Shown here: in pieces, positions 86 through 15,773 of the stretch
How positions within the stretch are numbered: the stretch's first letter is position 1
Layout: each line of letters starts with the position of its first letter
Assembly (NCBI GenBank): GCA_900234795.1
Contig: LT962688.1
Coordinates: 1,800,001-1,832,000, forward strand
Direction: 5' to 3'
Origin: Methylorubrum extorquens
GTDB taxonomy: Bacteria > Pseudomonadota > Alphaproteobacteria > Rhizobiales > Beijerinckiaceae
DNA: 32,000 nucleotides
Translations under genes and position numbers: made by a program
The notes under the pieces: model-generated
What the model was told of the DNA's origin: nothing
Database searches by the model: none
What the model saw: only the letters and a program-made list of their open reading frames with translations

Positions 86-367
86 ATGCGAATTCTTGCG
101 ACGGCGTTGGCGCTGACGGTCATGACGGGGCTCGGCGCCGGGACCGCGGAAGCCAAGGGATGCATCAAGGGCGCGATCATCGGCGGTGTCGCCGGACATT
201 ATCTGGCCGAGCGCGGCGTGGTCGGGGCCGTGGCCGGCTGTCTGGCCGGACGGGCCCTGGCGAACCGGCGCGCGCGGCGGGAGGTCGATTACGGCTCCCA
301 GGTCCAGCCCCGCGGGGCCGGCTATGGCGGCGGGCAGGCCTATCCGGGCCGGAATTACCGGTATTGA
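86..367 (+). CDS. small secreted glycine-zipper-type protein (hypothetical)
   Basis: ATG at 86 is preceded by a GGGAGGA Shine-Dalgarno at 74-80. The N-terminus MRILATALALTVMTGLGAGTAEA looks like a signal peptide. GAIIGGVAGHYLAERGVVGAVAGCLAG is a Gly/Ala zipper-like segment. A strong hairpin terminator lies directly downstream. Confidence 0.7.
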   Translation: MRILATALALTVMTGLGAGTAEAKGCIKGAIIGGVAGHYLAERGVVGAVAGCLAGRALANRRARREVDYGSQVQPRGAGYGGGQAYPGRNYRY

Positions 368-372
368 TGCAA

Positions 373-407
373 GAAGGGGCGCCGTTCGGCGCCCCTTCTC
401 GTTTCTG
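373..407. terminator. intrinsic terminator hairpin between convergent genes
   Basis: Perfect 11-bp stem GAAGGGGCGCC/GGCGCCCCTTC (373-383/388-398) with loop GTTC, followed by T-rich TCGTTTCTG. It sits between the stop of 86..367 (+) and the stop of the MCP gene (-). Confidence 0.75.
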
Positions 408-468
408 CAATTTCCGACACGGTCCGGGCCGCGCGAAATGTCCGGCGGCCGCTTCCTCGGAATGCGCC

Positions 469-2166
469 CTAGGCAGCGCGAATGGTCGCGAGGAAGCGAT
501 TGACCTCGGCGGACAGGTGCTCGGACTGACGCGACAGCTCTGAAGCGGACATCAGCACCTGGCTCGCGGCAGCTCCCGTTTCCTCCGAGGCCTCGGCCAC
601 TCCGCCGATGTTGGTCGTGACCTCGCTGGTTCCCACCGAAGCCTCGGCGACGTTGCGCACGATCTCCTGCGTCGCCGCGCCCTGCTGCTCGACCGCCGCC
701 GCGATCGTCGCGGTCACCGTGTTGATCTCCCGGATCCGCGTGGTGATCGAGCCGATCGCACCCACCGCCTGTCCGGTCGCCCCCTGGATCTGGCCGATCT
801 GGCCGGAAATTTCCTCGGTGGCGCGGGCGGTCTGGTTTGCCAGCTCCTTCACCTCGGCGGCGACGACGGCGAAGCCGCGACCGGCTTCGCCGGCCCGTGC
901 GGCCTCGATGGTGGCGTTGAGGGCGAGCAGGTTGGTTTGGCTCGCGATGTTGGCAATGAGGTTCACCACGTCGCCGATCCGGGTCACGGCCCTGCTCAAC
1001 TCGGTGACGTGGGAACCGGTCTCGTCCGCCTCGGCCACCGCCTGCTGGGCGAGGTTGGCCGAACCGGAGACCTGCCGGCCGATTTCCTGCACCGATGCAC
1101 CGAGTTCCTCGGCGGCGGAGGCGACCGTGTTGACGTTCGCGGCCGCCTCCTCCGCGGCCGAGGCGACGGTGGTCGATCGGGTGGCGGTCCTCTGAGCCGT
1201 CGATGTCATCTGCTGGGCGGTGGCCTGCAGCTCGGTCGCCGAGGAGGAGACCATGCCGACGATGCCGCCGACCGCCCCCTCGAAGCCGTCGGCGAGCTCC
1301 ATCATCGTGCGCTTGCGCTCGGCCGCCGCGGCGGTCTCGGCGATCTGCCGTCGCTCGGCGTCCTCGGCCGCCTTCCGGGCCACCATCGTCTTGATGCCCT
1401 CGACCGCCCGTCCCACGGCGCCGATCTCATCGCCGCGCGCGGCTTGGCGAATCGTGGAGTCGATCTCGCCCTGAGCCATCCGATTCAGAACGGAGACGAG
1501 CTGCGAGAGCGGCCGGGTAATGCCGAACACGACGATCGCACCGGAGAGCACGGCGGCCAGAAGCAGGCCGACCGCCGCCATCACGATCAGCTGGGTGACG
1601 GCCGTTCCGACATCCCGCTCGAGTTGGCTTGCGCCGGCCTGCATCTCCTCGATGATCTTCTGCGTGCGCGCTTCCACCAGCTCGGTGAGCTTGGCCCGCG
1701 CGGGCTGCCCTTCCTCCTGCACGATCGTCATCGCGGCATCGGTCTCGTTCCTGCTGCCGAGAACGATGGTCCGGTCGATGACGGCGAAATAGGCTTCGGC
1801 GAGTTTGCGAACATCGTTGCCGAATTTGACGCGTGCCGGCGTGTCCGCCAGGGCGATCAGCCGATCGATGTTTTTGTAAACGCCGCTGACGGTGGCGTCG
1901 TATCGTGCCTTGTATCGGTCGATCTTTTCCTTTCTGGGGTCGATGATGAGGTTGCGGCTGAGCAGGGTCGCCTCCGCAACACCGGCCTGGGCCTTGAGAT
2001 AAGACTCCTGCCGCACCGTCAGGACGTCGGCGACATAGCGGGATTGGACGGCGATTCCTTCGAACGTCGCCCGCTCGTGCAGAATAAGTGCGATAGCCAT
2101 GGCAGCGATCAGGACGAGCGGCGCGCATAGCTTCAACAAGACGCTCGCATTGTTGATATATCTCAT
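469..2166 (-). CDS. methyl-accepting chemotaxis protein (N-terminal TM, periplasmic helical sensor, second TM, HAMP, MCP signalling domain)
   Basis: 565-aa ORF with the highly conserved MCP signalling hairpin [35 protein letters not shown]. It has Ala/Ser/Thr/Gln-rich methylation helices, two hydrophobic segments ([13 protein letters not shown] and [24 protein letters not shown]) and a HAMP-like segment after the second TM. Confidence 0.95.
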
Positions 2167-2560
2167 TTGAGGTCAGTCCGCCCGCTCGGTGCCTAATGGA
2201 TCTATTGGAAAAGCGGGGCGAGTATTAAATAACGGGTTAAGATCCCTCGATCGATTATAATCCCTTGGGATGCTGCCGCCTTTGCAAAAAGAGGGCAGTG
2301 TAGAGGCGGGACATCAGACGCTTGGGTCGGCCGAAACCCCGTGCCGGTCAGGCACGCGGCGGGCGCAGAGGTCGCGCCGGACACGCCCTTCAAGGGCCGG
2401 CTTCCCGCTCGCGGATCGCTGAAATCTGCCCGGCGAAGATCAGCCCGGCCTCGCGAGCACGCTTTCAAAGGCCCTCCGAGGGGGAGGAGCGCTCGCACTT
2501 CGAATGGGCGGGACGGCGCCGATACGGCCTGTCGGAAGGCGGGCGGGAGACGTCCGGAGC

Positions 2561-2593
2561 GAAAAAAGGGGCGCCCTTTGAGGGCGCCCCTTT
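2561..2593 (-). terminator. rho-independent terminator of the DUF892 gene
   Basis: Perfect 12-bp stem AAAGGGGCGCCC/GGGCGCCCCTTT (2565-2576/2582-2593) with loop TTTGA. On the minus strand the hairpin is followed by TTTTTT (complement of the A-run ending at 2567). It lies about 80 nt downstream of the stop at 2672. Confidence 0.75.
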
Positions 2594-2671
2594 CCTGATC
2601 TGGCTTGCCTGCCTGCGATGCGCGGCCCGTCTTGCGGCAGGATCATCGGTCCTGCCGCAAGACGCCTGAGA

Positions 2672-3214
2672 TCAGGCGCTCTTGCGCCCGCCCTTGCCCT
2701 TCGCCGCGCCCGCCTCGACCTCCTCGGAGCCCTCGGTGTTGATGCGCTCGGCGATCTGCGAGAGCAGCGCGTCGGTCTTCTTCTCTTCCTGAAGGGTCTC
2801 GTCGAGCAGCTTGGCGGCGTCCGCGTAGCCGAGCTGGGTCGCCCAGGTCTTGAGCGTACCGTAGCGGGCGATCTCGTAATGCTCGACCGCCTGGGCGCAG
2901 GCCGCCAGCACCGCGTCGGCGGCCGGGCTGTCCTCGAAATCCTCCAGATCCTCCTCCATCTCGGAGGTCAGGCCCTGCATCGCCTCGCAGGTCTTGGCGC
3001 GGGCCGGCTTGCCGATGATCTCGAACACCTGCTGCAGGCGCTCGACCTGGTTGGCGCTCTCCTCGGCATGGGTCTCGAACGCTTGGCGGAGTTCGTCATG
3101 TTCGGCCGCCTTGGCCGACTTCTTCAGTGCACGCACCGATTGCTTTTCCGCGTAATAGACGTCCTTCAACGTCTCATAGAACGCATCGTGCAAGGTCTTC
3201 TGCTTGGTGGCCAT
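2672..3214 (-). CDS. DUF892 / YciE-YciF-like ferritin-like stress protein
   Basis: MATKQKTLHDAFYETLKDVYYAEKQ...AVEHYEIARYGTL...LLDETLQEEKKTD is the typical DUF892 four-helix pattern as I recall it. I chose the ATG at 3214 (AGGAGA Shine-Dalgarno just upstream) over the ORF-track start at 3265, whose extra residues are Arg/Pro-rich. Confidence 0.88.
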   Translation of the reverse strand: MATKQKTLHDAFYETLKDVYYAEKQSVRALKKSAKAAEHDELRQAFETHAEESANQVERLQQVFEIIGKPARAKTCEAMQGLTSEMEEDLEDFEDSPAADAVLAACAQAVEHYEIARYGTLKTWATQLGYADAAKLLDETLQEEKKTDALLSQIAERINTEGSEEVEAGAAKGKGGRKSA

Positions 3215-3424
3215 GGGAGTTCGTCTCCTGATTGCTGAACGAGGGGGCCGGGGGAGTGATCTCACCGTCGGCCGACACCTTAAGAACGTGAGTTCAGGCG
3301 ACAGGGTCCGAAAATTCTCTTGGGGGGAGGCCGTAAAATTCCGGGAACCTCGGCCGGTGGCGCCGGGGTTTCTGGGATCGGCCCGGAGGCAGGGCCACCT
3401 CCCCGGCCCAGGGCGCGGCGCGGG

Positions 3425-4429
3425 CTACAGCCACTTCTTCCAGCGGAAGAACACGTAGGGCAGCACGGCGGCCACCACCATCATGCCGACGGCGGCGGGG
3501 TAGCCGAAATGCCAGTCGAGCTCCGGCATGGTCTTGAAGTTCATGCCGTAGATCGAGGCGATCAGGGTGGGCGGCATGAACACCACCGCCATGACCGAGA
3601 ACAGCTTGATGATGTTGTTCTGCTCCAGGTTCACGAGGCCGAGCGTCGCGTCGAGCAGGAACTGGATCTTGGCCGAGATGAAGGTCGCGTGCTCTTCCAG
3701 CGATTGCAGGTCGCGTAAGGTGGAGCGCACGTCCTCGCGCAGCTCGCGCGGGGCCTTGGCCGTGCGGTAGGTGGCCGAGAGCGAGAGTAGGATGCGCTCC
3801 ATCGAGACGAGGCTCTCGCGCTGCTTCGAGATCAGGTCGCCGTAGCGCCCGAGCGAGCGCAATGTGTCCTGCAGCGCGTTGTTGCGCGAGGACGGGTCGC
3901 CCTTGTCCTCGAAGATCTTGCGCGAGAGGCGGTCGATGCGTTCGCCCTGGAGCTGGAGCACGTCGGCGGCGCGGTCGATCACCGCCTCGATCAGCCCGGC
4001 CAGGATCGACTCGCCCGAGACCGAGCGCGACGGCCCGTTGCCCGTCGCGCGGCCGGCGCGCTGTGTGTACATCCGGAACGCCTGCGGCTCCTCGTAGCGC
4101 ACGGTGATGAGCCGGTTGTCGCGCAGGATGAAGGTGATGCCGGCCAGGCCCGGCTCCTCGGAATCGCTGACGCGGGACAGCACGCGGCCCGTCATGTAGC
4201 GGGCGCCGGCCTCGACGTAGAGCAGCTCGGAAGGCTCGATGTCCTTCATCTCCTCGCGCGTCGGCACGGTGATGCCGAGGAAGGATTCGACTTTCACCTC
4301 CTCCTCCCGCGTCGGGCGCACGAGGTCGAGCCAGACCGTGTCCTCGGAGATCGGCTCCTGCAATTCGAGGTAGCGGCGTTCCAGCACCGTCTGGGAGCCG
4401 CCCGCGACGGGCTTGTGGGTGAAGATCAA
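3425..4429 (-). CDS. corA: CorA-family magnesium/cobalt transporter
   Basis: C-terminal signature SIYGMNF (GMN motif) lies between two TM helices, with a KKWL tail. The ORF track starts at 4567, which would overlap the upstream SDR gene by 112 nt with an Arg/Ser-rich extension. I prefer the TTG at 4429 (about 334 aa). The start is uncertain. Confidence 0.85.
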   Translation of the reverse strand: MIFTHKPVAGGSQTVLERRYLELQEPISEDTVWLDLVRPTREEEVKVESFLGITVPTREEMKDIEPSELLYVEAGARYMTGRVLSRVSDSEEPGLAGITFILRDNRLITVRYEEPQAFRMYTQRAGRATGNGPSRSVSGESILAGLIEAVIDRAADVLQLQGERIDRLSRKIFEDKGDPSSRNNALQDTLRSLGRYGDLISKQRESLVSMERILLSLSATYRTAKAPRELREDVRSTLRDLQSLEEHATFISAKIQFLLDATLGLVNLEQNNIIKLFSVMAVVFMPPTLIASIYGMNFKTMPELDWHFGYPAAVGMMVVAAVLPYVFFRWKKWL

Positions 4430-4454
4430 CGGATGTGACCTGTCGGATGGGGCT

Positions 4455-5309
4455 TCAGTCGAGTGCCCCGGGCGGGGCGACGCTTGTGTCCGGCACGAAG
4501 AAGTCCGGCGCAAGCGGAACGCCTGCTGTGACGCGGTATTTTGAAAAGTCCGTGACGCCTTCCTCACTCAGAACCGTGTCGTCGATGAGGAAATGCCCGG
4601 TGAAGTTCTTGGCCTCCCGCAGGAACACGGCGTGCGCGGCATCCGCCATGATCTCCGGCGTGCGGCTGGCCTGCATCAGCGCGTCGCCGCCGAGCAGGTT
4701 CTGAACGGCCGCCGTGGCGATGGTGGTGCGCGGCCACAGGGCGTTGACGGCGATGCCTCGGCCCCGAAGCTCCCCGGCGAGCCCGAGCACGCAGAGCGAC
4801 ATGCCGAACTTGGCCATCGAGTAGGCCAGATGCGGCGCGAACCATTTCTCCGCCATGTCGAGCGGCGGCGAGAGCATCAGGATATGCGGGTTCTCCGCCC
4901 GCTCCAGATGCGGAATCGCGTATTTGCTGACCATGTAGGTGCCGCGCGTGTTGATCTGATGCATCAGGTCGAAGCGCTTCATCTCGGTCTTGGGCGTGTT
5001 CGACAGCGAGATCGCGCTCGCGTTGTTGACCACGATGTCGATCCCGCCGAATTGTTTTGCGGTTTCATCCAGCGCCGTCTTCACCGCCTCTTCGTCGCGG
5101 ACATCGACGGTGAGCGGCAGCGCCCGGCCCCCTGCCCGCTCGATGGCTTCGGCGGCGGTGAAGATCGTGCCCTCTAGCTTCGGATGCGCCTGCGCGGTCT
5201 TGGCCGCGATCGCCACGTTGGCGCCGTCGCGGGCGGCGCGCAGGCCGATGGCGAGCCCGATGCCGCGCGAGGCGCCGGTGATGAACAGCGTCTTCCCCTT
5301 CAGGCTCAT
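4455..5309 (-). CDS. SDR-family NAD(P)-dependent oxidoreductase
   Basis: N-terminal Rossmann motif TLFITGASRGIGLAIG, NNASAI, and a Y-x3-K catalytic pair (YSMAK). The ATG overlaps the upstream stop as ATGA. Confidence 0.9.
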   Translation of the reverse strand: MSLKGKTLFITGASRGIGLAIGLRAARDGANVAIAAKTAQAHPKLEGTIFTAAEAIERAGGRALPLTVDVRDEEAVKTALDETAKQFGGIDIVVNNASAISLSNTPKTEMKRFDLMHQINTRGTYMVSKYAIPHLERAENPHILMLSPPLDMAEKWFAPHLAYSMAKFGMSLCVLGLAGELRGRGIAVNALWPRTTIATAAVQNLLGGDALMQASRTPEIMADAAHAVFLREAKNFTGHFLIDDTVLSEEGVTDFSKYRVTAGVPLAPDFFVPDTSVAPPGALD

Positions 5310-6169
5310 GCGTCATCCTCTCCGATCCGGAAGCGCTCCGGCTGGCGGCCGTCGGCGTCGGTGAAGCCGTAGGCGCGGGCGAGATCCCCGACATGGACCG
5401 TCCGCCCCGCCCGGTCCAGCACGGCGGGGTCGGCGGACAACGCCGCGAGCGCCCGGCCGGCATAGAGCGGGCTCTCGGTGGCGAGCGCCTCCTGGCCGAG
5501 ATCGCGCACCCGCTCGGTGGCGACGAAGCCCGGCGAGAGGCTGAGCGCGCAGACGCCGTGGGGGCTCAGTTCGGCGGCGCAGGCGAAGGCGAGCCGGTTC
5601 GTCGTCGCCTTGGCGAGGTCGTAGTAGAAATCGCCCAGAAACCCCTCCTCGGTGCCGAAGGAGACGAAGGCGATCAGGCCGGAGCGCGCGGCGACCATGG
5701 CCGGCGCCACGGCGCGGGCCAGCAGCAATCCCGGATAGGGCCCCGTCCCCAGAAACTGCGAGAACGGCTCGGCCGAGCGGCGCCAGAACGGCGTGCCCCA
5801 GGCGGCGCCGTCGGGGTAGCGTTCGCCGTCATAGCCCTCGTTGCCGCCCCACACGCTGGAGGCCGCGACATCGATCCGCCCGAACCGGCGCAGCGCCCAG
5901 TGCACGAGTTCGTCCACCGCCCGCTCGCTTGTGTGGTCGCACAGGTAATGGTGCCCCTCGCCGCCGGCCGCATCGACCTCGCGGGCGGTGTCCTCGATCG
6001 CTTCCGCGCGCGTCTCGGTGCGCCGCCCGGTCTCGGAGGAGCGCGCGGTGACGATCACCGTCGCCCCCGCCTCCCCCAACCCGCGGGCGAGCCCGCGCCC
6101 GACCCCGCGCGAGGCCCCGGCCACGAGGCAGACTTTTCCCCGCAGCGAGGGTGTGACGGAGGCGCTCAC
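5306..6169 (-). CDS. SDR-family oxidoreductase
   Basis: KVCLVAGASRGVGRGLARGLGEAGATVIVTARS is a Rossmann-type dinucleotide motif. The GTG start overlaps the upstream stop (GTGA), and the stop overlaps the next ATG (ATGA), so the genes look operonic. Confidence 0.8.
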   Translation of the reverse strand: MSASVTPSLRGKVCLVAGASRGVGRGLARGLGEAGATVIVTARSSETGRRTETRAEAIEDTAREVDAAGGEGHHYLCDHTSERAVDELVHWALRRFGRIDVAASSVWGGNEGYDGERYPDGAAWGTPFWRRSAEPFSQFLGTGPYPGLLLARAVAPAMVAARSGLIAFVSFGTEEGFLGDFYYDLAKATTNRLAFACAAELSPHGVCALSLSPGFVATERVRDLGQEALATESPLYAGRALAALSADPAVLDRAGRTVHVGDLARAYGFTDADGRQPERFRIGEDDA

Positions 6170-6930
6170 GCCTTGCCGGCGAGGAAGCGGGCGAGCCGCG
6201 CTTGCGTCTCGGGATCGCGCAGGCCCGCCTCGAAGGCCTGCGCCTCGGCCTCGATCGCCGCCTCGACCAGCGCCTGCTCGCCGCGCATCAGCGCGCGGGT
6301 CGCCTGCACCGCCCGGCGCGGCAGGGCGGCCAGCCGCGCGGCTTGCGCCAGCGCGTGCACCTCCAGCGCCTCGGAGGGCAGTTCGGCGTTGGCGAGCCCG
6401 AGCGCCACGGCGGCCGCGCCGTCGAACGGCTCGCCGAGCAGCAGCAGCGCCGAGGCGCGTGCGAGCCCGATCCGGCGCGGCAGCAGGTGGCTGGCGGCGG
6501 CCTCAGGCACCACGCCGAGTTCCACGAACGGCATGCGGAAGCGCGCCTGCGGCCCGACATAGACGAGGTCGCAATGCAGCGTCAGCGTCGTGCCGACGCC
6601 GATGGCGAGCCCGTCCACCGCCGCGACCATCGGGGTGCGGGTGCGGGCGAGCTGCCGGATGAAGCGCAGGGCCGGCATCTCGGAAAACGCGTCGCGCGGC
6701 GCCGTACCGGCGGCAAAGAAGTCGGCCAGATCGTTGCCGGCGGTGAAGGCGCCGGGCAGCCCGGCAAACACCACCGCCCCGATTTTTTGGGAGTTCGCGT
6801 CGGCGTCTTCCAGCGCCGCCGTGGCGGCGTCGTACATCGCCCCGGTCAGCGCGTTCTTCTTGGCCGGGCGGTTCCAGCGGATCAGGCGCACGCCGCCCGA
6901 AACATCCTCGATGGTGATGGCTTCGCTCAT
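6166..6930 (-). CDS. enoyl-CoA hydratase/isomerase (crotonase) family protein
   Basis: MSEAITIEDVSGGVRLIRWNRPAKKNALTGAMY...FTAGNDLADF...AAVDGLAIGVGTTL is the crotonase-fold pattern. I used the ATG at 6930; the ORF-track extension to 7110 is Arg/Gly-rich and implausible. Confidence 0.88.
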   Translation of the reverse strand: MSEAITIEDVSGGVRLIRWNRPAKKNALTGAMYDAATAALEDADANSQKIGAVVFAGLPGAFTAGNDLADFFAAGTAPRDAFSEMPALRFIRQLARTRTPMVAAVDGLAIGVGTTLTLHCDLVYVGPQARFRMPFVELGVVPEAAASHLLPRRIGLARASALLLLGEPFDGAAAVALGLANAELPSEALEVHALAQAARLAALPRRAVQATRALMRGEQALVEAAIEAEAQAFEAGLRDPETQARLARFLAGKA

Positions 6931-7360
6931 CCGCCCTCGCCCCACGCGCCGACCCCGAGCGCCGTCGCCGCCCTGACGGCATCGGCCCCTCGCCTCACCC
7001 TTCTTCCCGCGGCGACGCTTTGTCGAGGGGCCATCGGCGCGGTTCGGGCGCGCGCCCGCAAGCGGGTTCACGGCCCCGCGCCCCCTCCCCGTCCGGCCGG
7101 GGCCGCGCAACCCAGCCGCGCGGCGCCGACCCGCGCGGCATCACCGGCGGCGCCCGGGTTCGCGGGCCGGCGCCCCGGACGGAGGCGGCGGCAACGGGCG
7201 GCCCGAGCCGCCCTGCGCGAGGCCGGCCGGGTCGATCCGCCCGCAGGGCCCGAACCCAAGCCCCGTCGGCCGGCCGCGCCGGCCCCGACGCCTCGGCTTG
7301 CGGGGCGGTCCCGGTGTCGCACCCGCGAAACTTGGCGGTCCGCGTCTCGGATGACGGGCT

Positions 7361-7804
7361 ATGTGGTCACTCTACGCTCTCACGGTTCTCGCCGGTCTCG
7401 CCAACGCGATCCAGCCGGGACAGAACGCGACTCTGTCGAAGTCGCTCGGCCTGCCGGTGACGGCGGCCCTCCTGACCCTGCTGGTCAGCACCGCCGCCCT
7501 GCTCGTGGGCGGCCTCGCCCTGGGCAAACTCGAACTCCCCACCGGCCAACAGCTCGGGCAGGTGCCCTGGTGGGCGTGGCTCGGCGGCTTTTTGAGTATT
7601 CTGCTGATCCTGGCCCAGCTCTACGCCTCCCCCGCCATCGGCGCGGCGACGTTTTTGGGCATCATCGTCACCGTGGGCGTGCTCGCCTCGCTCGTGCTCG
7701 ACCACTTCGGCTGGATCGGATTTCAGGTGCACCCGGCCAGCGTTTGGCGGGTTGCCGGGGCGGTGTTGATGGTGATTGGGGTGGGGCTGGTGGCGGTGTT
7801 TTGA
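7361..7804 (+). CDS. DMT-superfamily small membrane protein (DUF606/YdcZ-like)
   Basis: 147-aa protein made almost entirely of hydrophobic helices (LYALTVLAGLANAIQPGQNATLSKSLG...VLMVIGVGLVAVF). The pattern matches DUF606 as I recall it. The stop at 7802-7804 coincides with the GC drop. Confidence 0.8.
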   Translation: MWSLYALTVLAGLANAIQPGQNATLSKSLGLPVTAALLTLLVSTAALLVGGLALGKLELPTGQQLGQVPWWAWLGGFLSILLILAQLYASPAIGAATFLGIIVTVGVLASLVLDHFGWIGFQVHPASVWRVAGAVLMVIGVGLVAVF

Positions 7805-7972
7805 TGGATAAGCATACGATCAATTGAATTATTCAGAAAATCATGCCCAGTCTGGACTAATCAGCGGGACAACTATTGTTCGAAAATCGTAGATACTGAA
7901 AAATTAATCTATATTCGTAAGAGCGCGGTGTCCCGCCCTAGGTGCGGTATCGGGTGCAAAATGTTTCTGAAA

Positions 7973-8000
7973 TTGCCTTGTCGGAAGGTTTGTTTATGCT
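7973..8000 (+). promoter_or_regulatory. possible sigma70-like promoter for the helicase gene
   Basis: TTGCCT (7973-7978), a 16-nt spacer, then TATGCT (7995-8000), about 35 nt upstream of the first candidate start. This is a motif match by eye only. Confidence 0.25.
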
Positions 8001-8034
8001 AGGTTGCGCCGAACCCTGGGCGTGATATTAGCCG

Positions 8035-9579
8035 TTGGAGCGAGAATTGAGATCGGGGTTGCCAGAAAATCACGGACTGCCAGAAGTAATACTAGACAGT
8101 AATTTAATACATAGAGATGAATTAGGCGAAATTCAGCTAACTGATATTCAGTTCGAAGCTTTGGAAGCAGGTGTTGCACGAGGGAATAACATCCTTGCCG
8201 TAGCGCCGACATCGAGCGGAAAAACTGACGTCGGTTTGTATGCTGCCGGTGCTTGGCTTGTAAGTGGGCTCGACGATGGAGCGAAAGTAGTTTTTCTTAC
8301 ATCCCATCGGGCGTTGGCTCGACAAAAATTCTATGAATTGATAGAAAATTTTGCTCCATTATTGATGCTGGGCTCTGACGAACTTGTTCTTGCGACTGGG
8401 GATGATGTACTTGATTCAAATGGTGATCCGGTACCTGATGCTCTTGCAGTACCTGTTATCGTTGCTACCTATGAAAAGTACCTCAATATGCTTTCAGGTG
8501 CCGGCTTCGAGGCCGGTAGATCTAAGGTTTGCTGCATTTGTGATGAAATTCAGCTAATCGGAGATCAAAACAGAGGGACTTCGGCTGAGATATTGCTTAC
8601 TCTGTTGAAGGGTAGAGTTGGGCAAATTGTCGGTCTGTCAGCCGTGCTTGAAAGCGGTTACGCAGGACTATTGTCAAGCTGGTTGGGTACGAATCTTATA
8701 AGAACTGTAGACCGAGAAATACCATTGAAATATGAGCTAAGAACAGCTCGCGCAACGATGATTACAGACACATCAAGCCAAAAGCAGCCAGAAATACTGA
8801 AGCCAAGATCAATTAATACGATCGACACACTGCGAGATATTCTAACTGATGGGTCAGATAGTGAGCCCATAGCTGTATTTTGCATGACAAAAAAACAAGT
8901 ATTCGATTTGGCTGAAGATTGGTCTGCCGAGGCTGCTAGGCTGGGAGCTCGTGTTGATGAAACATTGCCGCTCTTCAGCGAACTCACTTCCTCAGCCGAA
9001 GAGCTTGTTCGATATCTTCCTCATCGGTTTGCCTACCATACTGCAGATCTGAATGAAGATGAAAGAGTTGCGGTTGAAACAAAGCTGGACGACAATAACT
9101 TAAGAGTAGTTTTTGCTACGACCACCCTTGCATCTGGTCTAAACTACTCATTTAAGACCGTGATAATTCATAGTTGGATGCGGTACAATCAATTAGATAA
9201 GATATGGGCTCCTATCCCTTCTGCAGAATTCCATAATATGGCAGGCCGCGCGGGACGTCTTTCAAGGGTAGATAAAGCGGGAAGAGTAATATATTTCGCT
9301 GGCGACTCCAAAGAGCTTCGAGCGGCGCCGCGATATCTTTCATGGTGGGAATTGGAAGTACCACCACCGCGGATCCAACCAACCTCATTTTCGCAGCTCG
9401 GACTGCAATTGCTGGCCTCTGGCGTTGCGACGTCAGAGGTCACTTTGTTTGAATTTCTGCAGAGTACGTTTAGCGCGCAGAGAGAAATGGAACGCAATGC
9501 CCAGCAGCCTGAACTTTGGGGTGACGCTATCAGGCAGGCCATTTCTGATCTAAAAAAGTGGAGGTTTATTTCTCAATGA
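8035..9579 (+). CDS. SF2 helicase core, Hel308/Ski2-like (RecA1, RecA2 and N-terminal part of a winged-helix domain)
   Basis: All SF2 motifs occur in order: LTDIQFEAL (Q-like), APTSSGKT (8203-8226), VVFLTSHRALARQKF, ATGDD, VIVATYEKY, CDEIQLIGDQNRG (D at 8542), GLSAVL, IAVFCMTKK, AYHTADL, VVFATTTLASGLN and EFHNMAGRAGR (9238-9258). The start is non-ATG. TTG 8035 is the longest option. TTG 8047 has a GGAG Shine-Dalgarno at 8037-8040. Confidence 0.9.
   Translation: MERELRSGLPENHGLPEVILDSNLIHRDELGEIQLTDIQFEALEAGVARGNNILAVAPTSSGKTDVGLYAAGAWLVSGLDDGAKVVFLTSHRALARQKFYELIENFAPLLMLGSDELVLATGDDVLDSNGDPVPDALAVPVIVATYEKYLNMLSGAGFEAGRSKVCCICDEIQLIGDQNRGTSAEILLTLLKGRVGQIVGLSAVLESGYAGLLSSWLGTNLIRTVDREIPLKYELRTARATMITDTSSQKQPEILKPRSINTIDTLRDILTDGSDSEPIAVFCMTKKQVFDLAEDWSAEAARLGARVDETLPLFSELTSSAEELVRYLPHRFAYHTADLNEDERVAVETKLDDNNLRVVFATTTLASGLNYSFKTVIIHSWMRYNQLDKIWAPIPSAEFHNMAGRAGRLSRVDKAGRVIYFAGDSKELRAAPRYLSWWELEVPPPRIQPTSFSQLGLQLLASGVATSEVTLFEFLQSTFSAQREMERNAQQPELWGDAIRQAISDLKKWRFISQ
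9560..9564 (+). promoter_or_regulatory. Shine-Dalgarno (GGAGG) for the downstream nuclease-tail gene
   Basis: GGAGG lies 11 nt upstream of ATG 9576, which overlaps the ORF1 stop as ATGA. Confidence 0.5.
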
Positions 9580-10940
9580 TGGTTACTCCTGGCGGTAGAG
9601 CAGTGGCCCGCTCTGGATTGCTGCCGATAAGTGCCGACGAACTTCTAGGGTATATATCAGATAACTCTGTAAGATTTATCGACCTTATCCAAAATTGCTC
9701 TGAAAATGAAGGTATAGAATGCGAAGACTTTTGCTTTTTAATGATACATGCGGCTTACAGTTGCTCTGAATTTGGCGGTCAAGCCGTTGGCGGTCGCCGC
9801 TTCTTGCCATACCAATTGCTTAAGCCGCCTCTTAGAGGAGCGCAGCAGAGACTAGCCCCGATAATGTTCAAGTCTGGGCAATATGATACAATTAATGCCA
9901 CAATCCTGGCCATGCGATGGATTTCTGGAGATCCCATACGGGATATCGAGCGAGTATTTTCAGTAAGAAGTGGCGTATTGAACAATATGTTCAGTGATGC
10001 AGCAAATATTTTGCGTGGAATATCAGACATATTGTACGCTGTAACTGGTCGTCAGGGCGAATCTATGCTCCCAGCGGCGACGCCGCTTTCGAAAAGGGAG
10101 GAGCTCATATACATTCTGAGGGCAATTCGTCAAGTCTCAGCTAGATTGGATGTGGGTCTTCACGAGGACTCAATCTGGCTGACGACTGTGCATTACCCTT
10201 TATCAAACACGTCGAGAAGTATTCCTCCTATTTTGAGCCGCAAACACATCGTTTCTTTGAGGGGCGCCGGTTTTGTTTCGCCCGACAGTATTTTGGATCC
10301 AGGACGGTTTTCTAGTTTGATGGCCGCATTGGGTTCGGATCCCGCTTCAGCACGTCTACTCGCACAGAGCCTTCAAGATGGAGTTCGTTCTTGGCGCACT
10401 GTCGAGAGACAGCGTTTGATGGATAGTCAGGCTCGTAGACTTCCGGAATGTAAGTCGCTAATATTAAAGTTTTATAGGTCGACCGGTGTAGAATTCGAGA
10501 CGAATTTGGAATTGGCTCTAGAATGTGTTGGGATAAAAATTTTAGAAAAGGACCAGGCTGGAAAGACATCATTCCCTGATTTTGTGACAGAGTCAATTGC
10601 GAGTAGATCAACTGCAATCGAGTGCAAATCGAAGACCGTTGGAGACTCGGTAAATTTCAATGATGCAACTGACGTAATCCGCAAGGCAAATGTTAATGGC
10701 CTAAGTCAATCATTCAAAATCACTGTTTGCCAGCCGTATATAAGCCCAGATGTGCCTCGAAAGCTCACCAACTGCACTGAGCTTTGTGTGGTGAATGCGG
10801 AAGATCTTGCTGAGGCCCTAGTTCGAGTCAAGTTGGGAAAAATTTCTATGGAAACCTTCGCTGATTGGATACAGCGGCCCGGTCAAGCGTTGCGTGAAAT
10901 GTTGCCCAGTGATGGGTCTAGTGTTATTGGAATATCTTGA
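9576..10940 (+). CDS. helicase C-terminal module (winged-helix remainder, ratchet-like helical domain, HhH-like segment) fused to a PD-(D/E)xK nuclease domain
   Basis: VTPGGRAVARSGLLPISADEL resembles the Hel308 'T.lG..vS.lyidP' element. TINATILAMRWISGDPIRDIERVFSVRSGVLNNMFSDAANILRGISDIL is ratchet-like, and IVSLRGAGFVSPDSILDP is HhH-like. The C-terminus reads VEFETNLELALE...FPDF (D at 10578)...AIECK (E at 10620, K at 10626). The ORF track starts at GTG 9558. I prefer ATG 9576 for independent initiation. Confidence 0.85.
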   Translation: MMVTPGGRAVARSGLLPISADELLGYISDNSVRFIDLIQNCSENEGIECEDFCFLMIHAAYSCSEFGGQAVGGRRFLPYQLLKPPLRGAQQRLAPIMFKSGQYDTINATILAMRWISGDPIRDIERVFSVRSGVLNNMFSDAANILRGISDILYAVTGRQGESMLPAATPLSKREELIYILRAIRQVSARLDVGLHEDSIWLTTVHYPLSNTSRSIPPILSRKHIVSLRGAGFVSPDSILDPGRFSSLMAALGSDPASARLLAQSLQDGVRSWRTVERQRLMDSQARRLPECKSLILKFYRSTGVEFETNLELALECVGIKILEKDQAGKTSFPDFVTESIASRSTAIECKSKTVGDSVNFNDATDVIRKANVNGLSQSFKITVCQPYISPDVPRKLTNCTELCVVNAEDLAEALVRVKLGKISMETFADWIQRPGQALREMLPSDGSSVIGIS

Positions 10941-11004
10941 TTATTTTATCTTACTAAACAATTCAATATAAGCGAGTTTGATTATATTTGAAGCTATCTG
11001 ACTT

Positions 11005-11030
11005 CCGCAATATTGTTTATAATGTTGCGG
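11005..11030 (+). terminator. hairpin downstream of the islet operon (possible terminator)
   Basis: CCGCAATATT/AATGTTGCGG forms a 10-bp stem (one G-U pair) with loop GTTTAT, about 65 nt after the stop at 10940. There is no clear U-tract. Confidence 0.3.
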
Positions 11031-11711
11031 TGATGCTATTGCTATGATTCTATACTTCCTACTTTTCAATGCGGCGTTCGCGGGCAAATCAATTGACATT
11101 TTAGGCTTTTGGTCCTACATTCACGCCACTCGCCTCCCGGTCCAACCGGGGGAGCTTTTCCGGTGACCGGCCGGCGAGGCTCGTTGGGAGGTGGGGCGGT
11201 TCCCGCGTCGGTGGCCCGGTCGCCATCGCCTCGGGCGCTGTGCGCGACACAACGCCAACGCGGGATGGGGCCATAGGCCGGTCTCGGGTCGGCGCCCAGG
11301 ACCAACCGGAGCCGGGCCCAATACGAGGTCCGGTGCGGACGAGTCCGCCCATAGCCGTCTGCCGAGGTTCCCTCTCCCCTCGCGGGGAGGCGGGCCGAGG
11401 GTCCCACAGCGCCTAGATCCGGGGTCGATGCCGGTGGAGAGACCGTGACGCCAAAACGGAGGGACGGCTTCCCGTGATAAGGAAGCGGCCCCTCCGCGGG
11501 ACGCCGGGAAACCGGCAAAGTCTCACATACCCATCCGGAGGTTTCGCGGCGTCCCGCGTCCCCCTCGGGGTTTGTGTCCGATGCGTACCCAGCCGGCCGA
11601 TCGGCCAGCCGTCCTCCGGGCCCGGATCTCAGGGCCGCGGGGGGAAACGTGTTTTTGCAAGAATGCGGTTCGACCGGTCGGGGCGACGAGCGCGGTTCCA
11701 GCCCTCCGTCT

Positions 11712-11812
11712 CATCCTGAGGTGCGGCGCGAAGCGGCGCCTCGAAGGATCTTCCCGATCCCGCGCGATCCCCGGAGCCCCCTTCGCGGGCGCTTGCGCGC
11801 CACCTCAGGATG
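11712..11812. repeat. REP-like palindromic intergenic element
   Basis: Perfect 12-bp inverted repeat CATCCTGAGGTG (11712-11723) / CACCTCAGGATG (11801-11812), 77 nt apart. The left arm region CATCCTGAGGTGCGGCGCGAAGCGGCGCCTCGAAGGAT is itself hairpin-forming. It resembles the abundant Rhizobiales intergenic palindromes as I recall them. Confidence 0.5.
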
Positions 11813-11844
11813 CGGGCGTGGCGGGGCGGATGTGCGCGGCGCCG

Positions 11845-11945
11845 AGAGCCGTATCCGACCTGATGGCATCAGGCCGGCGTCTCTCGGTCCTTGTTGTGAC
11901 GCGCATTCTTTCGACGAACCGGTCACCACTTCGTCGGAATGCGCT
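11845..11945. repeat. 101-nt structured intergenic repeat, copy A
   Basis: 91 of 101 positions are identical, with no gaps, to 15108-15208 (hand alignment). It contains the hairpins CCTGAT-GGC-ATCAGG and CGACGAA-N11-TTCGTCG. Confidence 0.85.
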
Positions 11946-11994
11946 CGAGAGCATCATCCCGAAAGGTGGTGACCGGCTTTCGGAAAAAGATGAT

Positions 11995-12051
11995 GCAATA
12001 ACAAAAGGCTAGAGCATCGTGCTGGATCCGATATCCGGCACGATGCTCTAG
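11995..12051 (-). terminator. rho-independent terminator of kpsF
   Basis: Perfect 14-bp stem CTAGAGCATCGTGC/GCACGATGCTCTAG (12009-12022/12038-12051), extendable by about 4 more pairs. On the minus strand it is followed by CCTTTTGTTATT. The kpsF stop codon (12048-12050) lies inside the stem. Confidence 0.8.
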
Positions 12052-13070
12052 GCCACGCCGGTGCGCAGCAGGTCGTGGTAGTGCACGAGGCCGACGGGGC
12101 GGCCCTGGTCCACCACCACGAGCGCGGTGATCTTCATCGCCTCCTGGATCTGCAGCGCCTTGGCGAGCAGGGTCTCGGGCGTGATCGTGCGGGGGTTGGC
12201 GGTCATCACCGCCTCGACCGGCAGGCGGTCCAGCCCCTCGCGGGAGAAGACGGCGCGGCGCACGTCGCCGTCGGTGAGGATGCCGGCGAGCGCGCCCTTT
12301 CCATCGACCACGAGGACCGAGCCGAAACCCTTGGCGTCGATCTCGGCCACGGCGGCCCGCATCGCGGTGCCGATGGCCACCACGGGCAGATGCGCCCCGC
12401 CATGCATGACCTCGCGTACCTGCCGCAGCGAGGCGCCGAGCCGGCCACCGGGATGGAACACGGAGAAGTCGCGGGCCGAGAAGCCGCGGGCCTCCAGCAG
12501 CGCCACGGCGAGCGCGTCGCCGAGCGCGAGCTGCATCGCCGTCGAGGTGGTGGGGGCGAGCCCGTTCGGGCAGGCCTCCTTAGCTTTCGGCAAAGCGAGG
12601 CAGGTATCGGCCTCGCGGCCGAGCGTCGAGGCGGCGTTCGAGGTGATCGCCACGAGGCCGACGCGGTAGCGCCGGGTGTAGCCGATGATGTCGGCCAGTT
12701 CCGTGGTCTCGCCCGACCAGGACAGCGCCAGCACCACGTCGTCGGGCTGGATCATGCCGAGATCGCCGTGGCTCGCCTCGGCCGGGTGGACGTAGAGCGC
12801 GGGCGTGCCGGTGGAGGCGAAGGTCGCCGCGATCTTGCGGGCGACGTGGCCGGACTTGCCCATGCCGGTGCAGATCACCCGGCCGCGCGCCGCGCCGATC
12901 CGCTCGACGGCCTGCGCGAACGGCTCGCCGAGGCCGTTGTCGATCGCGGCCATCAGGCAGGCCAGGCCCTCGCGCTCGGTCTCGATGGTGCGCAGGGCCG
13001 AGGCGATGGCGGGCGCCCGCGCCGCGCCGTCCGTCCGGTTCCGGTCCTCGATCCGCTGTGCCAGGGCCAT
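12048..13070 (-). CDS. kpsF: KpsF/GutQ-family arabinose-5-phosphate isomerase (SIS domain plus tandem CBS domains)
   Basis: RVICTGMGKSGHVARKIAATFASTGTPALYVHPAEASHGDLGMI is the SIS-domain signature. The C-terminal CBS pair includes VVDGKGALAGILTDGDVRR and VVDQGRPVGLVHYHDLLR. Confidence 0.93.
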   Translation of the reverse strand: MALAQRIEDRNRTDGAARAPAIASALRTIETEREGLACLMAAIDNGLGEPFAQAVERIGAARGRVICTGMGKSGHVARKIAATFASTGTPALYVHPAEASHGDLGMIQPDDVVLALSWSGETTELADIIGYTRRYRVGLVAITSNAASTLGREADTCLALPKAKEACPNGLAPTTSTAMQLALGDALAVALLEARGFSARDFSVFHPGGRLGASLRQVREVMHGGAHLPVVAIGTAMRAAVAEIDAKGFGSVLVVDGKGALAGILTDGDVRRAVFSREGLDRLPVEAVMTANPRTITPETLLAKALQIQEAMKITALVVVDQGRPVGLVHYHDLLRTGVA

Positions 13071-13245
13071 GAAGCTGTCGTTTCCGTCTCAAAGCCCGGC
13101 GCCGGGCCCTCGCGATTCCTTAACCGCCCTCTTCACCCGCGACTGTGGCCGCATGGGGGCTACGCAACGGCTGCCCACGGCGGGACAGGGCGAGCGGGCG
13201 CCCCGCAACGGCGCGTTAACCATGCCCGGTGTAGCCCCGTTAACC

Positions 13246-15093
13246 ATGGAGCGCCGGCCGGACACGGAACGCCGCCCCGTCCACGGGCCGCCGGCCGTAT
13301 CCAGGGAAAGAGCGCTGCCGGTGTCACGCGAGCGGCCGAACGGGGACAAGCGAGGGGGGCGCCGCGGGGCGTTCGCTCTGGCGCTGCTCCCCGCCCTGCT
13401 CGGGGGCCCCGCGCTGGCGCAGGAGACGCCCGACCCGTCGCAGACCGAGCCCGCCCCGAGCACGGCGTCGAACCCGCTCGCGCGCAGCCCCTCCGAACCG
13501 GCGACCGCGGGCCGCCCACGCCGCTCCGCCTTCGACGCGCCGACGGCTTTGCGCGGCTCCGGCGCCTTCTCCGCCCCCGCCCCGCTCGGCAGCGGCACGC
13601 CCGCGAATCCGGCCCCCGCCTCCGAGGAGAGCGAGGAGCCGAGTGTGGCCCGCCTGCCGCGCTTCCGCAGCGCGACGAGCCTGCCCGGCTCCGCCGCGAC
13701 GCGGGGCACCCCGGCCCGGCCCTCGATCTTGCGCCTGCGCGCGGCACCCCCGCGCCGGCTCGGCACGGCGACCCGCCAGATCACGCAGACGCGCACGCAG
13801 CAGACGATCACGGATCTGCGCCTCACCCCGGTGATCCAGACGCCCGTCTCCGGCGTGCCGCTGCCGGCGCCGATCCTCGGGCTCGGCCTGCCGAACGCCG
13901 CCGGGCTGCTGCTCGGCACGGCTTTGCGCCGGCCGATCCCCGCCGACACCGCCTACGCGCCGCTCGGCATCCGGCTCGGCACCTTCACGCTGCTGCCGGC
14001 CTTCACCCAGAGCGTCGGCTACGATTCGAACCCGGACCAGATCGGCGGCACCCGCTTGCGGCCCTCCCTGGCGCTGCGCAGCGAGGCGGAGCTGGCGCTG
14101 CGCAGCGAATGGTCGGCGAGCGAACTCACCGCCGAGATGCGCGGCAGCTACCTCGAATATCCGCAGAACCCCGAGGCGAGCCGCCCCAACGCGGTGGGCA
14201 CCGCGCGGATGCGCGTCGACGTCGACCGCGACACCCGGATCGATCTGGAGACCCGCTTCCTGCTCGACAGCCAGCGCATCGGCAGCCCGGATCTCGGCGC
14301 GGGCGGGGGGGCGACGACCCGGCCGCTCTTCGCCACCTACGGCGCGACCGCGGGGGTGCAGGAAAACTTCAACCGGCTGCAGCTCTCGCTGCGCGGCTCG
14401 ATCGACCGCTCCGTCTTCGAGGACGCGCAGCTCGGCAACGGCACCACGATCATCCAGAGCGACCGCGACGCCAACCAGTACGGCCTGCGCCTGCGCGCCG
14501 GATACGAGATCTCGCCCGCGATCACGCCCTTCGTCGAGACCTTCCTCGACACCCGGGTCTACGACACGCCGGTGGACCAGTTCGGCCTGCGCCGCGATTC
14601 CGACGGCGTCGCCTTCACCGCAGGCGCGGCGGTGGCGCTCAACAGCACGCTGACGGCGGAAATCTCGGGCGGCCTGCAGCACCGCTCCTACATCGATCGC
14701 ACACTGCAGGACATCAACGCGCCGGTCATCAACGCGGCGCTCGTCTGGTCGGTCTCGCCGCTGACCACGGTGCGGTTCAACCAGCAGACCGGCGTGATCG
14801 AGACCGCGGTGCCGGGCTCCAGCGGCGCCTTCACCGACGCCGCCACGCTCGAAGTGCAGCACGACCTCCTGCGCAACCTCTCGATCACGCTGGGCGGCGC
14901 TTACCTCTCCACCAACTACGACGGCGTGCGCATCCGCGAGCGGGGCTATTCCGCCACCGCCCGGCTCGACTACCGCTTCAACCGCTGGCTCGCTCTCCGC
15001 GGCAGCTACATCTATTCGACGCTGAACAGCACCGTCCCGCTCTCGACCTACGAGGCGCACACGGTGCTGCTCGGGGTGCGGGTGAACCCCTGA
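13246..15093 (+). CDS. outer-membrane beta-barrel protein with a long Pro/Ala/Ser-rich N-terminal region
   Basis: Signal-like segment RGAFALALLPALLGGPALAQE is followed by about 200 aa of low complexity. Alternating beta-strand patterns follow, ending in the typical C-terminal ...YEAHTVLLGVRVNP. The start is uncertain: ATG 13246, 13222 or 13153. The ORF-track start at 12805 lies inside kpsF antisense. Confidence 0.78.
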   Translation: MERRPDTERRPVHGPPAVSRERALPVSRERPNGDKRGGRRGAFALALLPALLGGPALAQETPDPSQTEPAPSTASNPLARSPSEPATAGRPRRSAFDAPTALRGSGAFSAPAPLGSGTPANPAPASEESEEPSVARLPRFRSATSLPGSAATRGTPARPSILRLRAAPPRRLGTATRQITQTRTQQTITDLRLTPVIQTPVSGVPLPAPILGLGLPNAAGLLLGTALRRPIPADTAYAPLGIRLGTFTLLPAFTQSVGYDSNPDQIGGTRLRPSLALRSEAELALRSEWSASELTAEMRGSYLEYPQNPEASRPNAVGTARMRVDVDRDTRIDLETRFLLDSQRIGSPDLGAGGGATTRPLFATYGATAGVQENFNRLQLSLRGSIDRSVFEDAQLGNGTTIIQSDRDANQYGLRLRAGYEISPAITPFVETFLDTRVYDTPVDQFGLRRDSDGVAFTAGAAVALNSTLTAEISGGLQHRSYIDRTLQDINAPVINAALVWSVSPLTTVRFNQQTGVIETAVPGSSGAFTDAATLEVQHDLLRNLSITLGGAYLSTNYDGVRIRERGYSATARLDYRFNRWLALRGSYIYSTLNSTVPLSTYEAHTVLLGVRVNP

Positions 15094-15107: not shown

Positions 15108-15208
15108 AGAGCCGTCTCCGACCTGATGGCATCAGGCCGGCGTCTCTCGGTCTTTGTTTCGACGCGCTTTCTTTCGCCGAACCGGCGTCCACTTCGTCGG
15201 AAAGCGCT
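15108..15208. repeat. 101-nt structured intergenic repeat, copy B
   Basis: Ungapped match (91/101) to 11845-11945. It fills almost the entire gap between the convergent stops at 15093 (+) and 15209 (-). Confidence 0.85.
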
Positions 15209-15773
15209 TTAGCGCGCCATCGAGAGCTGCGCGCCGGATTTCGAGAGCGCGCCCTCGAGTCCGCCGCCGGCCTGCCGCAGGCGCGCCGTGACGGTGCCGC
15301 CCGGCTGGTAGAGGTAGACCTCGCCATCGCGGAAATCCCAGGCCGAGACCTTGGCGAGATCCTTGTTGCCGCAACCCGCGGCCGAGGCCTTGTAGAGATC
15401 GAGCGAGGGCGTGCTCGACAGCGACACCTTGCAGCTTCCCGCGGCATCGGTGGCGTTCCACGAGCCCACCACCGAGGAGCGGCCGGTCGCGACCACCGGC
15501 GGCGGAGCGGGCGGGGGGCGGCGGCTCGATCGCCTGCGAGGGGGCCGCGGCGACGCTCGGGGGCGGCGGCTCGCCCGGCGCGGCGGAGGCGCCCGGCGGG
15601 GGCGCGAGCGGCTCGCTCGTCACCGTGCCGGCGGGCAGAGCGGGCGTGGCGGGTTCAAGCGCCGCCTGGGGGCGCGGACGCTCGCGGGGCCCCTCGAAGC
15701 GGTTGGAGGCGCAGGCGCCGACGCTCGCGGCCAGCGCGAGACAGGCGGCTTTCGACAGGAACCCACGCGTCAT
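15209..15773 (-). pseudogene. Omp19/Inh-family (protease-inhibitor-like) lipoprotein gene, apparently frameshifted
   Basis: The frame from ATG 15773 (GAGGGG Shine-Dalgarno) gives a lipoprotein signal, MTRGFLSKAACLALAASVGAC, plus a Pro-rich linker. The conserved C-terminal domain VVGSWNATDAAGSCKVSL...LAKVSAWDFRDGEVYLYQPGGTVTARL...GAQLSMAR is in a different frame (15496..15209). The length is 565 nt, which is 3n+1. The switch maps near the G6 tract at 15513-15518. Confidence 0.7.

Follow-up and report, generated by a model that had tools for sequence, protein, structure and literature searches.

A low-GC islet of Methylorubrum extorquens occupies a hypervariable cassette slot and probably encodes a split Hel308-type helicase-nuclease defence system

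Here we report the analysis of a 3288-bp low-GC islet located at positions 7805-11092 of a 32,000-nucleotide (nt) stretch of Methylorubrum extorquens DNA (assembly GCA_900234795.1, contig LT962688.1, positions 1,800,001 to 1,832,000 of the forward strand), which is hereafter called the window. The islet carries two overlapping open reading frames (ORFs) and is one of many alternative cassettes found at the same place in Methylorubrum. We favour, with a probability of roughly 70%, an interpretation in which the islet is the occupant of a defence hotspot and encodes a split Hel308-type helicase-nuclease, the cassettes of this hotspot being swapped via their flanks; the cassette itself is probably an uncharacterised helicase-nuclease defence system. 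The features on which this interpretation is built are as follows.

7361-7804, plus strand: gene of a DMT/YdcZ-family membrane protein, the conserved left anchor (Pfam DMT_YdcZ, 9.5e-31).
7805-11092, no strand: the islet, one allele of a hypervariable cassette slot, as judged by its composition and by the unrelated cassettes in 21 other loci.
8047-9579, plus strand: ORF1, 510 amino acids (aa), a Ski2/Hel308-type superfamily 2 (SF2) helicase core, with a TTG start at 8047 and GGAG at 8037-8040.
9576-10940, plus strand: ORF2, 454 aa, whose ATG overlaps the TGA of ORF1 (ATGA, 9576-9579).
11093-11121, plus strand: sigma70-type promoter TTGACA-17-TACATT, the right boundary of the slot and the best promoter match of the region (10/12).
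11128-11580, plus strand: conserved GC-rich non-coding element, the right anchor, a candidate structured RNA of ~450 nt.
12048-13070, minus strand: gene of a KpsF/KdsD arabinose-5-phosphate isomerase (NCBIfam KdsD 7.9e-97, kpsF 4e-90).

The islet differs from its surroundings by every compositional measure applied. Its GC content is 0.455, as compared with 0.685 for the remainder of the window, and lies ~9 standard deviations (SD) away from that of 223 other windows of 3288 nt (mean 0.683, SD 0.025, minimum 0.633). In 300-nt windows, the GC content falls from 0.69-0.83 left of position 7700 to 0.42-0.52 inside the islet and recovers to 0.60-0.73 past position 11000, and the tetranucleotide distance is maximal on the islet (0.064 vs ~0.02). 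The GC content at third codon positions is 0.38 in ORF1 and 0.43 in ORF2, as compared with 0.86-0.96 in the DMT, kpsF, SDR and enoyl-CoA hydratase genes. An earlier note on this DNA had described a GC break at the stop codon of the DMT gene and A/T-rich third codon positions in the islet genes, and both descriptions agree with the present results, the break being sharp in the 300-nt windows. Its hand-counted GC content of 38-42% was too low, the computed value being ~45%. The GC recovery that it had placed near 11100 is found there, the exact edge lying at 11092/11093, where a conserved promoter of a candidate non-coding RNA had been overlooked as the boundary.

The position of the islet was analysed by a locus scan with the DMT protein as query and one genome per species, which yielded 54 loci. 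In nine species of the Methylorubrum clade, the DMT gene and everything from ~11093 onwards are conserved, including the kpsF/KdsD gene, a core gene past the RNA element that is 90-97% identical in relatives, and the DNA between these flanks is different in each species (1.6-3.5 kb, GC content 0.41-0.47, in one case 0.59). Metagenome contigs scanned with an invariant 22-mer from the right-flank element added 13 genuine loci; one further candidate (L079) was rejected as a chance 22-mer match within unrelated coding DNA. The all-against-all comparison of 22 loci from Methylorubrum genomes and metagenome contigs resolved 19 mutually unrelated cassettes, and the flanks are 75-97% identical across the 21 loci other than the window, thus showing the conserved flanks and variable content of a core hotspot. 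No empty site was found among the 22 loci; therefore, the model implied by the earlier note, a simple insertion into a site still empty in relatives, was dropped in favour of allelic replacement at a hotspot.

Allelic replacement is also seen at a short evolutionary distance, as contigs encoding exactly the DMT protein of the window fall into two groups, those with the islet and those with another cassette. Two strains that are 99.83% (L061, CP021054.1) and 99.91% (L062, LMNP01000027.1) identical to positions 361-14804 of the window both carry the islet. The genome FP103042.2 (L063), which we take to be M. extorquens DM4, is 97.2% identical to the window up to position 7802 and 96.8% identical from position 11093, and has an unrelated 2910-bp cassette in between. 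The low-GC segment is thus confined to strains of 99.8-99.9% identity, and is missing in all other examined species as well as in this 97%-identical genome, which bears out the earlier claim of recently acquired foreign accessory cargo and answers in the negative its question whether all relatives share the segment; as a description, cargo was incomplete in that both the hotspot and the helicase-nuclease identity had been missed. The same distribution bears on the idea that the islet is ancient resident DNA whose AT-richness is kept by selection or mutation bias. The similar GC content of all slot cassettes (0.40-0.47) could hint at such a local compositional constraint, but the sequence is missing from all other species and from the 97%-identical genome with the same DMT protein, and homologous cassettes reside in unrelated genera and on plasmids, also under the GC content of their hosts. 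Allelic replacement at the slot refutes this idea, to which we attach next to no credence.

Nearly all slot cassettes have a GC content of 0.40-0.47 in genomes of ~69% GC, regardless of the genes that they carry (e.g., L001 10445-13394, L080 and L081). This uniformity suggests that the cassettes come from one shared pool of AT-rich mobile genes or that a high AT content is selected for; xenogeneic silencing of such DNA is a speculative addition. In a more divergent locus (L074, contig RepKanNP_Acetate_BrdU_F21BDRAFT_1001237), the gap between the DMT gene and the RNA element consists of ~1 kb of GC-normal DNA and a 1.8-kb low-GC cassette, and the promoter of the RNA reads TTGATA-17-TACAAT. This locus shows that the slot reaches past the core Methylorubrum group.

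Both limits of the slot are defined to the base. On the left, the DMT stop codon (7802-7804) forms the edge in every locus, homology with relatives stopping there, and on the right the homology to the DM4-type genome restarts at 11093, the first base of the promoter. The -35 box and the TACA core of the -10 box are invariant in 10 of 10 aligned loci, the -10 box being TACAAC in the other nine. Since the variable DNA spans exactly the interval between a stop codon and a -35 box, these limits appear to be set by purifying selection on the neighbouring elements rather than by a site-specific recombinase. We propose that one- or two-gene low-GC cassettes would be swapped in and out by homologous recombination in the conserved flanks after transfer between relatives, a process in which no integrase would be needed. 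The breakpoints are sharp and shared, but the flanks show no divergence gradient.

An integrative element or integrase-mediated island that has decayed, with loss of its integrase and att repeats, would be another source of such an islet. It draws on the tyrosine recombinase genes that lie a few kb from homologous cassettes in Agrobacterium, Sphingopyxis, Methylobacterium sp. J-059 and Burkholderia. In line with the claim of the earlier note that the islet has no mobility gene, no integrase, transposase, tRNA or terminal repeat was found in it. Across the window, ARAGORN detected no tRNA or tmRNA, Rfam gave no family at the gathering threshold, and a Pfam domain search found no integrase or transposase domain among the ORFs; a tRNA, tmRNA or known RNA as an integration target was accordingly rejected. 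The islet termini contain no significant direct or inverted repeats, the best pair (17 nt, 82%, AT-rich; 7823-7839 and 10951-10967) being at chance level. Integrases and recombinases are likewise missing from the scanned proteins and gene calls of the other slot alleles, so that none of the 22 alleles has one, and the two breakpoints shared by 19 unrelated cassettes are a stop codon and a -35 box, not an att core. A decayed island is therefore very improbable in our estimation.

The other occupants of the slot are dominated by recognisable immunity genes. As determined using PADLOC and Pfam, 13 of the 19 types have matches in PADLOC families of known or candidate defence systems, several with E <1e-50, which is the enrichment in defence genes expected of a core hotspot. 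In the closest species (L021), the slot holds a canonical Hachiman system (HamA 1.6e-139, HamB 6e-233), and two further Hachiman types are found among the other cassettes. The remaining matches include a complete type I CBASS (cyclase 5.5e-194, 2TM effector 8e-79), the B and C components of PD-Lambda-2, an NsnA/GmrSD_N-like protein with a HEPN partner (the latter matched by Pfam), a CapP-like M78 peptidase pair, KAP NTPases of the PDC-S20 (3e-89) and PDC-S49 families, a SIR2-like PDC-S25 protein, a PDC-M28B-like P-loop protein, an Argonaute-associated protein resembling restriction endonucleases, and, in the DM4-type genome, an LmuB-like SMC ATPase. Occupants without any Pfam or PADLOC match include a pair of 417 and 408 aa, a 467-aa protein, and a 333-aa protein with a 205-aa membrane protein, and a ParA-like pair of 419 and 182 aa has only a marginal PADLOC match (E ~1e-3); these unmatched and marginal occupants are located at L001 10722-13198, L002 10488-11891, L078 and L076. 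By their position, all of these occupants are candidates for further unnamed defence systems.

ORF1 encodes the motor part of an SF2 helicase. Its start was set at 8035 in the ORF list, and both gene callers (510 aa) and homologues back the TTG at 8047. The protein matches the Pfam domains DEAD (3e-15) and Helicase_C (8e-9), and has intact GKT, DEIQ, SAV and GRAGR motifs. Its best solved relatives are Hjm/Hel308 helicases (PDB 2zj2, 1.4e-28, over residues 27-446 of this Hjm structure; ~25-470 for Hel308/Hjm in general), and the alignment to Hel308 spans the RecA1, RecA2 and winged helix (WH) domains and stops before the ratchet and HLH domains.

The missing domains are predicted at the beginning of ORF2. 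The AlphaFold (AF2) model of this protein has high scores (predicted local distance difference test, pLDDT, 89.8; predicted template modelling score, pTM, 0.86), and in it residues 1 to ~300 form an all-alpha module that is the apparent equivalent of the Hel308 ratchet and HLH domains. All top 15 Foldseek matches of the model are structures of Hel308, Hjm and PolQ helicase domains (probability 1.0, 250-315 columns), and the next matches, to the C-terminal ~110 residues, are nucleases of the NucS/EndoMS type (probability 0.77-0.82). Residues ~300-445 constitute a predicted PD-(D/E)xK nuclease domain, and the model contains the catalytic motif and the strand order expected of the alpha-beta-beta-beta-alpha-beta core of this superfamily. 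The residues E308, P334-D335, E349-x-K351 (nt 10578-10628) and K370 are invariant in a 34-member alignment of ORF2 proteins (A1).

The relation of the two proteins is clarified by longer homologues in which they are joined, fused forms of ~965 aa among them. One such homologue (P0152) matches ORF1 with its residues 3-436 and ORF2 with residues 442-894 (5e-64). Among the cluster representatives collected with the ORF2 profile, 37 hold both halves in one chain and 28 reach a length of at least 850 aa, and a search with a 969-aa fused member retrieved 374 clusters across Proteobacteria, all labelled just 'DEAD/DEAH box helicase'. An alignment that combined fused, helicase-only and ORF2-only proteins (A4) was dropped, as MAFFT had placed ORF2 homologues in the helicase half, and an alignment of fused proteins only (A5) was used in its place. 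In 53 fused sequences, D860 and E873-x-K875 are invariant, and the 969-aa model built from them (pLDDT 88.2, pTM 0.86) superposes on whole Hel308/Hjm chains with target-normalised template modelling scores of 0.76-0.83 (E ~1e-29 to 1e-30, ~780 columns), followed in the structural ranking by PolQ helicase domains, with HamB outside the top 50. In the window and in Rhizobium, Agrobacterium, Sphingopyxis and Myxococcus, the break in the chain lies between the WH and ratchet domains, and the two reading frames share a conserved overlap of 4 nt. Taken together, the models and alignments suggest that the cassette encodes one enzyme in two translationally coupled polypeptides.

By analogy with Hel308, Hachiman, Hna and Cas3, we infer the following mechanism for this enzyme. 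ORF1 would be the ATPase motor (RecA1-RecA2-WH) of a Hel308-type 3'-to-5' DNA helicase, and the ratchet and HLH domains of ORF2 would close the DNA-threading ring, with the PD-(D/E)xK nuclease placed after HLH. The heterodimer might load on 3' single-stranded DNA tails, or on aberrant or branched replication or recombination intermediates of phage or plasmid DNA, and ATP-driven 3'-to-5' translocation would reel the strand through the ring into the attached nuclease. The outcome would be degradation of the invader DNA, and possibly of host DNA as well (abortive infection).

Comparison with named systems places the cassette near several helicase-nuclease systems. Hachiman consists of the Ski2-like helicase HamB and the DUF1837 nuclease HamA, which binds the N-terminal bundle of HamB (PMC12278908, PMC11914072). 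The islet is similar in having two genes for a Ski2/Hel308-related DNA helicase and a PD-(D/E)xK nuclease, and HamB models are the best PADLOC matches of ORF1 (1e-25), with Hachiman filling the same slot in the closest species. However, ORF2 is not a DUF1837 (PF08878)/HamA protein, having no Pfam or PADLOC match up to E 0.1, whereas the HamA of L021 was detected at 1.6e-139 by the same searches. Its nuclease is joined to the ratchet and HLH domains that belong to the helicase itself, and the helicase gene comes first, in reverse of the Hachiman order. Furthermore, ORF1 and its fused relatives match only ~100-160 of ~1000 positions of the HamB models, in the RecA core, and none of the sequence matches of ORF1 includes a counterpart of the N-terminal HamA-binding bundle region. 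As a result, membership in Hachiman was rejected, with partial helicase-core matches and no partner, and so was membership in PDC-M23, for which PADLOC likewise gave only a partial helicase-core match of ORF1 (PDC-M23B, 1e-25) and the partner is unmatched. Not even in the fused forms is the nuclease part covered by a PADLOC model.

The closest fold is that of Hel308 (Hjm, HELQ, PolQ helicase domain), whose five domains RecA1-RecA2-WH-ratchet-HLH are all found in the model of the fused relative. In contrast to Hel308, the cassette family is bacterial, mobile and patchy in distribution and has an extra C-terminal module of ~270 aa with the nuclease, and the protein of the window is split after WH instead of forming a single chain of ~700 aa. 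It is not a Hel308 orthologue, as the matches to NCBIfam models of the Hel308 type are confined to the N-terminal ~460 positions and stay far under the cutoffs (best 161 bits vs 887; helicase_Hel308 96 vs 1200). Hel308 was stated to be absent from bacteria in the 2024 Hachiman paper (PMC12278908); the fused and split family would qualify this statement at the level of the modelled fold, not of orthology. Hna, first found in an alphaproteobacterium, is an 845-aa DinG/XPD-like (ExoDinG) helicase with a reduced Arch domain and a C-terminal PD-(D/E)xK nuclease, which degrades single-stranded DNA in abortive infection (PMC13381803). The cassette shares with it an SF2 ATPase with a C-terminal PD-(D/E)xK nuclease, but the Ski2/Hel308-type helicase is of another SF2 lineage and has no sequence or PADLOC match to Hna. 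Membership in Hna, as described in the publication, was rejected because of its DinG/XPD helicase lineage. By these analogies, the cassette resembles helicase-nuclease systems in its putative working logic and is a member of none of them.

The slot itself can be compared with core defence hotspots such as cDHS1 and cDHS2 of Pseudomonas aeruginosa, which are flanked by core genes and lack mobility genes (PMC10250203, PMC5635113). It is similar to them in being a fixed position between core genes with alternative, mostly anti-phage cassettes and no dedicated mobility genes, and in the turnover of its content between close strains. Unlike the multi-system cDHS islands, it is very small, each genome having a single system of 1.6-3.5 kb there, and is occupied in every genome seen; it is also set apart from known core hotspots by limits that are exact to the base, namely a stop codon on one side and, on the other, the -35 box in the promoter of a non-coding RNA.

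Genomic contexts of homologous cassettes in other taxa point to mobility and immunity. They adjoin tyrosine integrases together with HEPN/Polbeta, PIN, HSDR_N and AbiJ/Abi_C genes, and are found in an integrase/PrimPol island in Burkholderia, in Lelliottia next to a resolvase and a further large helicase pair, and in one case beside an rve transposase. A fused 962-aa form lies between relaxase genes and IS256 on the conjugative plasmid p.D of Cereibacter sphaeroides (L069, CP031755.1, 5480-8368), near a DUF4433/ADP-ribosylglycohydrolase pair resembling DarTG. Wherever measured, the homologues are below the GC content of their hosts. Carriage by phages was not detected, with no match in 50,697 phage records or in IMG/VR contigs.

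The cassette is intact in the window and decaying in sister strains, where nonsense mutations arose independently in genomes of at least 99.8% identity. Two strains (L062 and L064) have the change Y367* in ORF1 (window position 9147). The third (L061) has E45* in ORF2 (9708) and eight missense changes, one of them at the invariant D326, and 17 of its 24 single-nucleotide polymorphisms fall within the islet, an 8-fold higher density (5.2 vs 0.63 per kb, p = 7.6e-7), most of them being non-synonymous. Because a patchy distribution, mobile neighbours, a slot shared with defence systems and rapid inactivation are combined here, we favour a role in immunity that carries a fitness cost, the defence activity being deduced from genomic context.

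Several observations weigh against the defence-hotspot interpretation. ORF2 has no match among Pfam, PADLOC (E up to 0.1) or NCBIfam models, and the arrangement of ORF1 and ORF2 is extrapolated from a model of a fused homologue of ~30-45% identity. Motif II of ORF1 (8542-8553) is DEIQ, not the DExH usual for Ski2/Hel308 helicases, DE-x-Q being conserved throughout the fused family. With regard to the route of exchange, flank identities relative to the DM4-type and Leaf123 genomes show no clear recombination gradient. As no defence match can be recognised for six of the 19 cassette types, slot membership is suggestive and not proof.

Hel308-family enzymes are DNA-repair helicases, and the cassette could instead be an accessory repair or recombination enzyme for stalled forks or crosslinks, in a hotspot that accepts any cargo. 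The closest structural relatives, Hel308, Hjm and the PolQ helicase domain, fit this role, as does the resemblance of the nuclease to the mismatch/flap nuclease NucS/EndoMS; the Myxococcus copy is next to a DNA polymerase III alpha-type gene, mobile or defence genes not being evident around it, and at least one slot allele (L008) looks regulatory rather than defensive. However, occurrence is patchy and differs from strain to strain, the GC content is low everywhere, the association with integrases, insertion sequences, toxin-antitoxin and Abi genes and conjugative plasmids is recurrent, the slot is shared with 13 recognisable types of defence cassettes, and pseudogenisation in sister strains is rapid, a pattern typical of defence and not of repair genes. 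We consider a repair role unlikely, though more probable than a decayed island.

The non-coding parts of the islet and of its right flank comprise three further features.

7805-8046, plus strand: AT-rich cassette leader, which contains a GC-rich patch and has no similarity to any other locus.
10941-11092: AT-rich trailer, GC content 0.34.
11005-11030, plus strand: perfect 11-bp hairpin in the trailer (RNAfold), a possible operon terminator.

No confident promoter was predicted in the leader, and the consensus terminator scan missed the hairpin. The GC-rich patch at 7921-7958 is real (GC content 0.71, as compared with 0.40 for the leader without it), but its proposed origin as a relic of the original intergenic DNA was rejected, as it has no similarity to any other allele, relative or flank.

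The element at 11128-11580, which bounds the slot together with its promoter, has a mean identity of 89% between species and is classified as non-coding because the differences include single-base indels. Of the 125 pairs predicted by RNAalifold, 12 show compensatory changes, and 97% of cells pair; the covariation is 0.132 vs 0.033-0.040 with partners slid by 1-3 columns, and none of 500 shuffles reached the observed score. Numerous G-U pairs are compatible with the plus strand only. Rfam gave no match to the element even up to E 1. Together with its promoter, it is conserved in all ten Methylorubrum loci that were aligned and in the majority of metagenome contigs that reach far enough. These alignments make it a candidate for a structured RNA gene of ~450 nt. 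Its predicted structure includes a long hairpin at ~11490-11555, with a switch from A-U to G-C between species, and a short CCCC/GGGG hairpin followed by a T-run near 11560-11580. Farther downstream, a 114-nt direct repeat (11845-11958 and 15108-15221, 87% identical) is the only long repeat in the window. Its first copy lies within ~200 nt that are present in the window and lacking in aligned relatives, and overlaps weak sub-threshold Rfam matches to the Brucella small RNA models CI27 (E = 6e-6) and CI408; the repeat is probably an intergenic element resembling repetitive extragenic palindromes or miniature inverted-repeat transposable elements.

For the biology of Methylorubrum, the locus represents a compact natural catalogue of defence cassettes in a plant-associated methylotroph, with ~20 alleles in a slot whose limits are known to the base, and the six unnamed cassette types are candidates for new systems. 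The always-filled slot and the independent nonsense mutations illustrate the fast gain, loss and decay of immune genes. Participation of the structured RNA at the border in cassette regulation or exchange is a less likely possibility. The family of 374 fused clusters hides an entire Hel308 fold and a nuclease, as modelled, behind a generic helicase label. It may, tentatively and at somewhat less than even odds, constitute an undescribed immune family that combines a complete Hel308-type helicase with a PD-(D/E)xK nuclease, a bacterial counterpart of Hel308/PolQ and a bridge to HamB. In the split form of alphaproteobacteria and myxobacteria, assembly of the ring from two polypeptides might allow regulated loading on invader DNA. 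The role of bacterial Hel308-type motors in immunity, the origin of the Hachiman helicase and the effect of splitting the ring thereby become testable questions.

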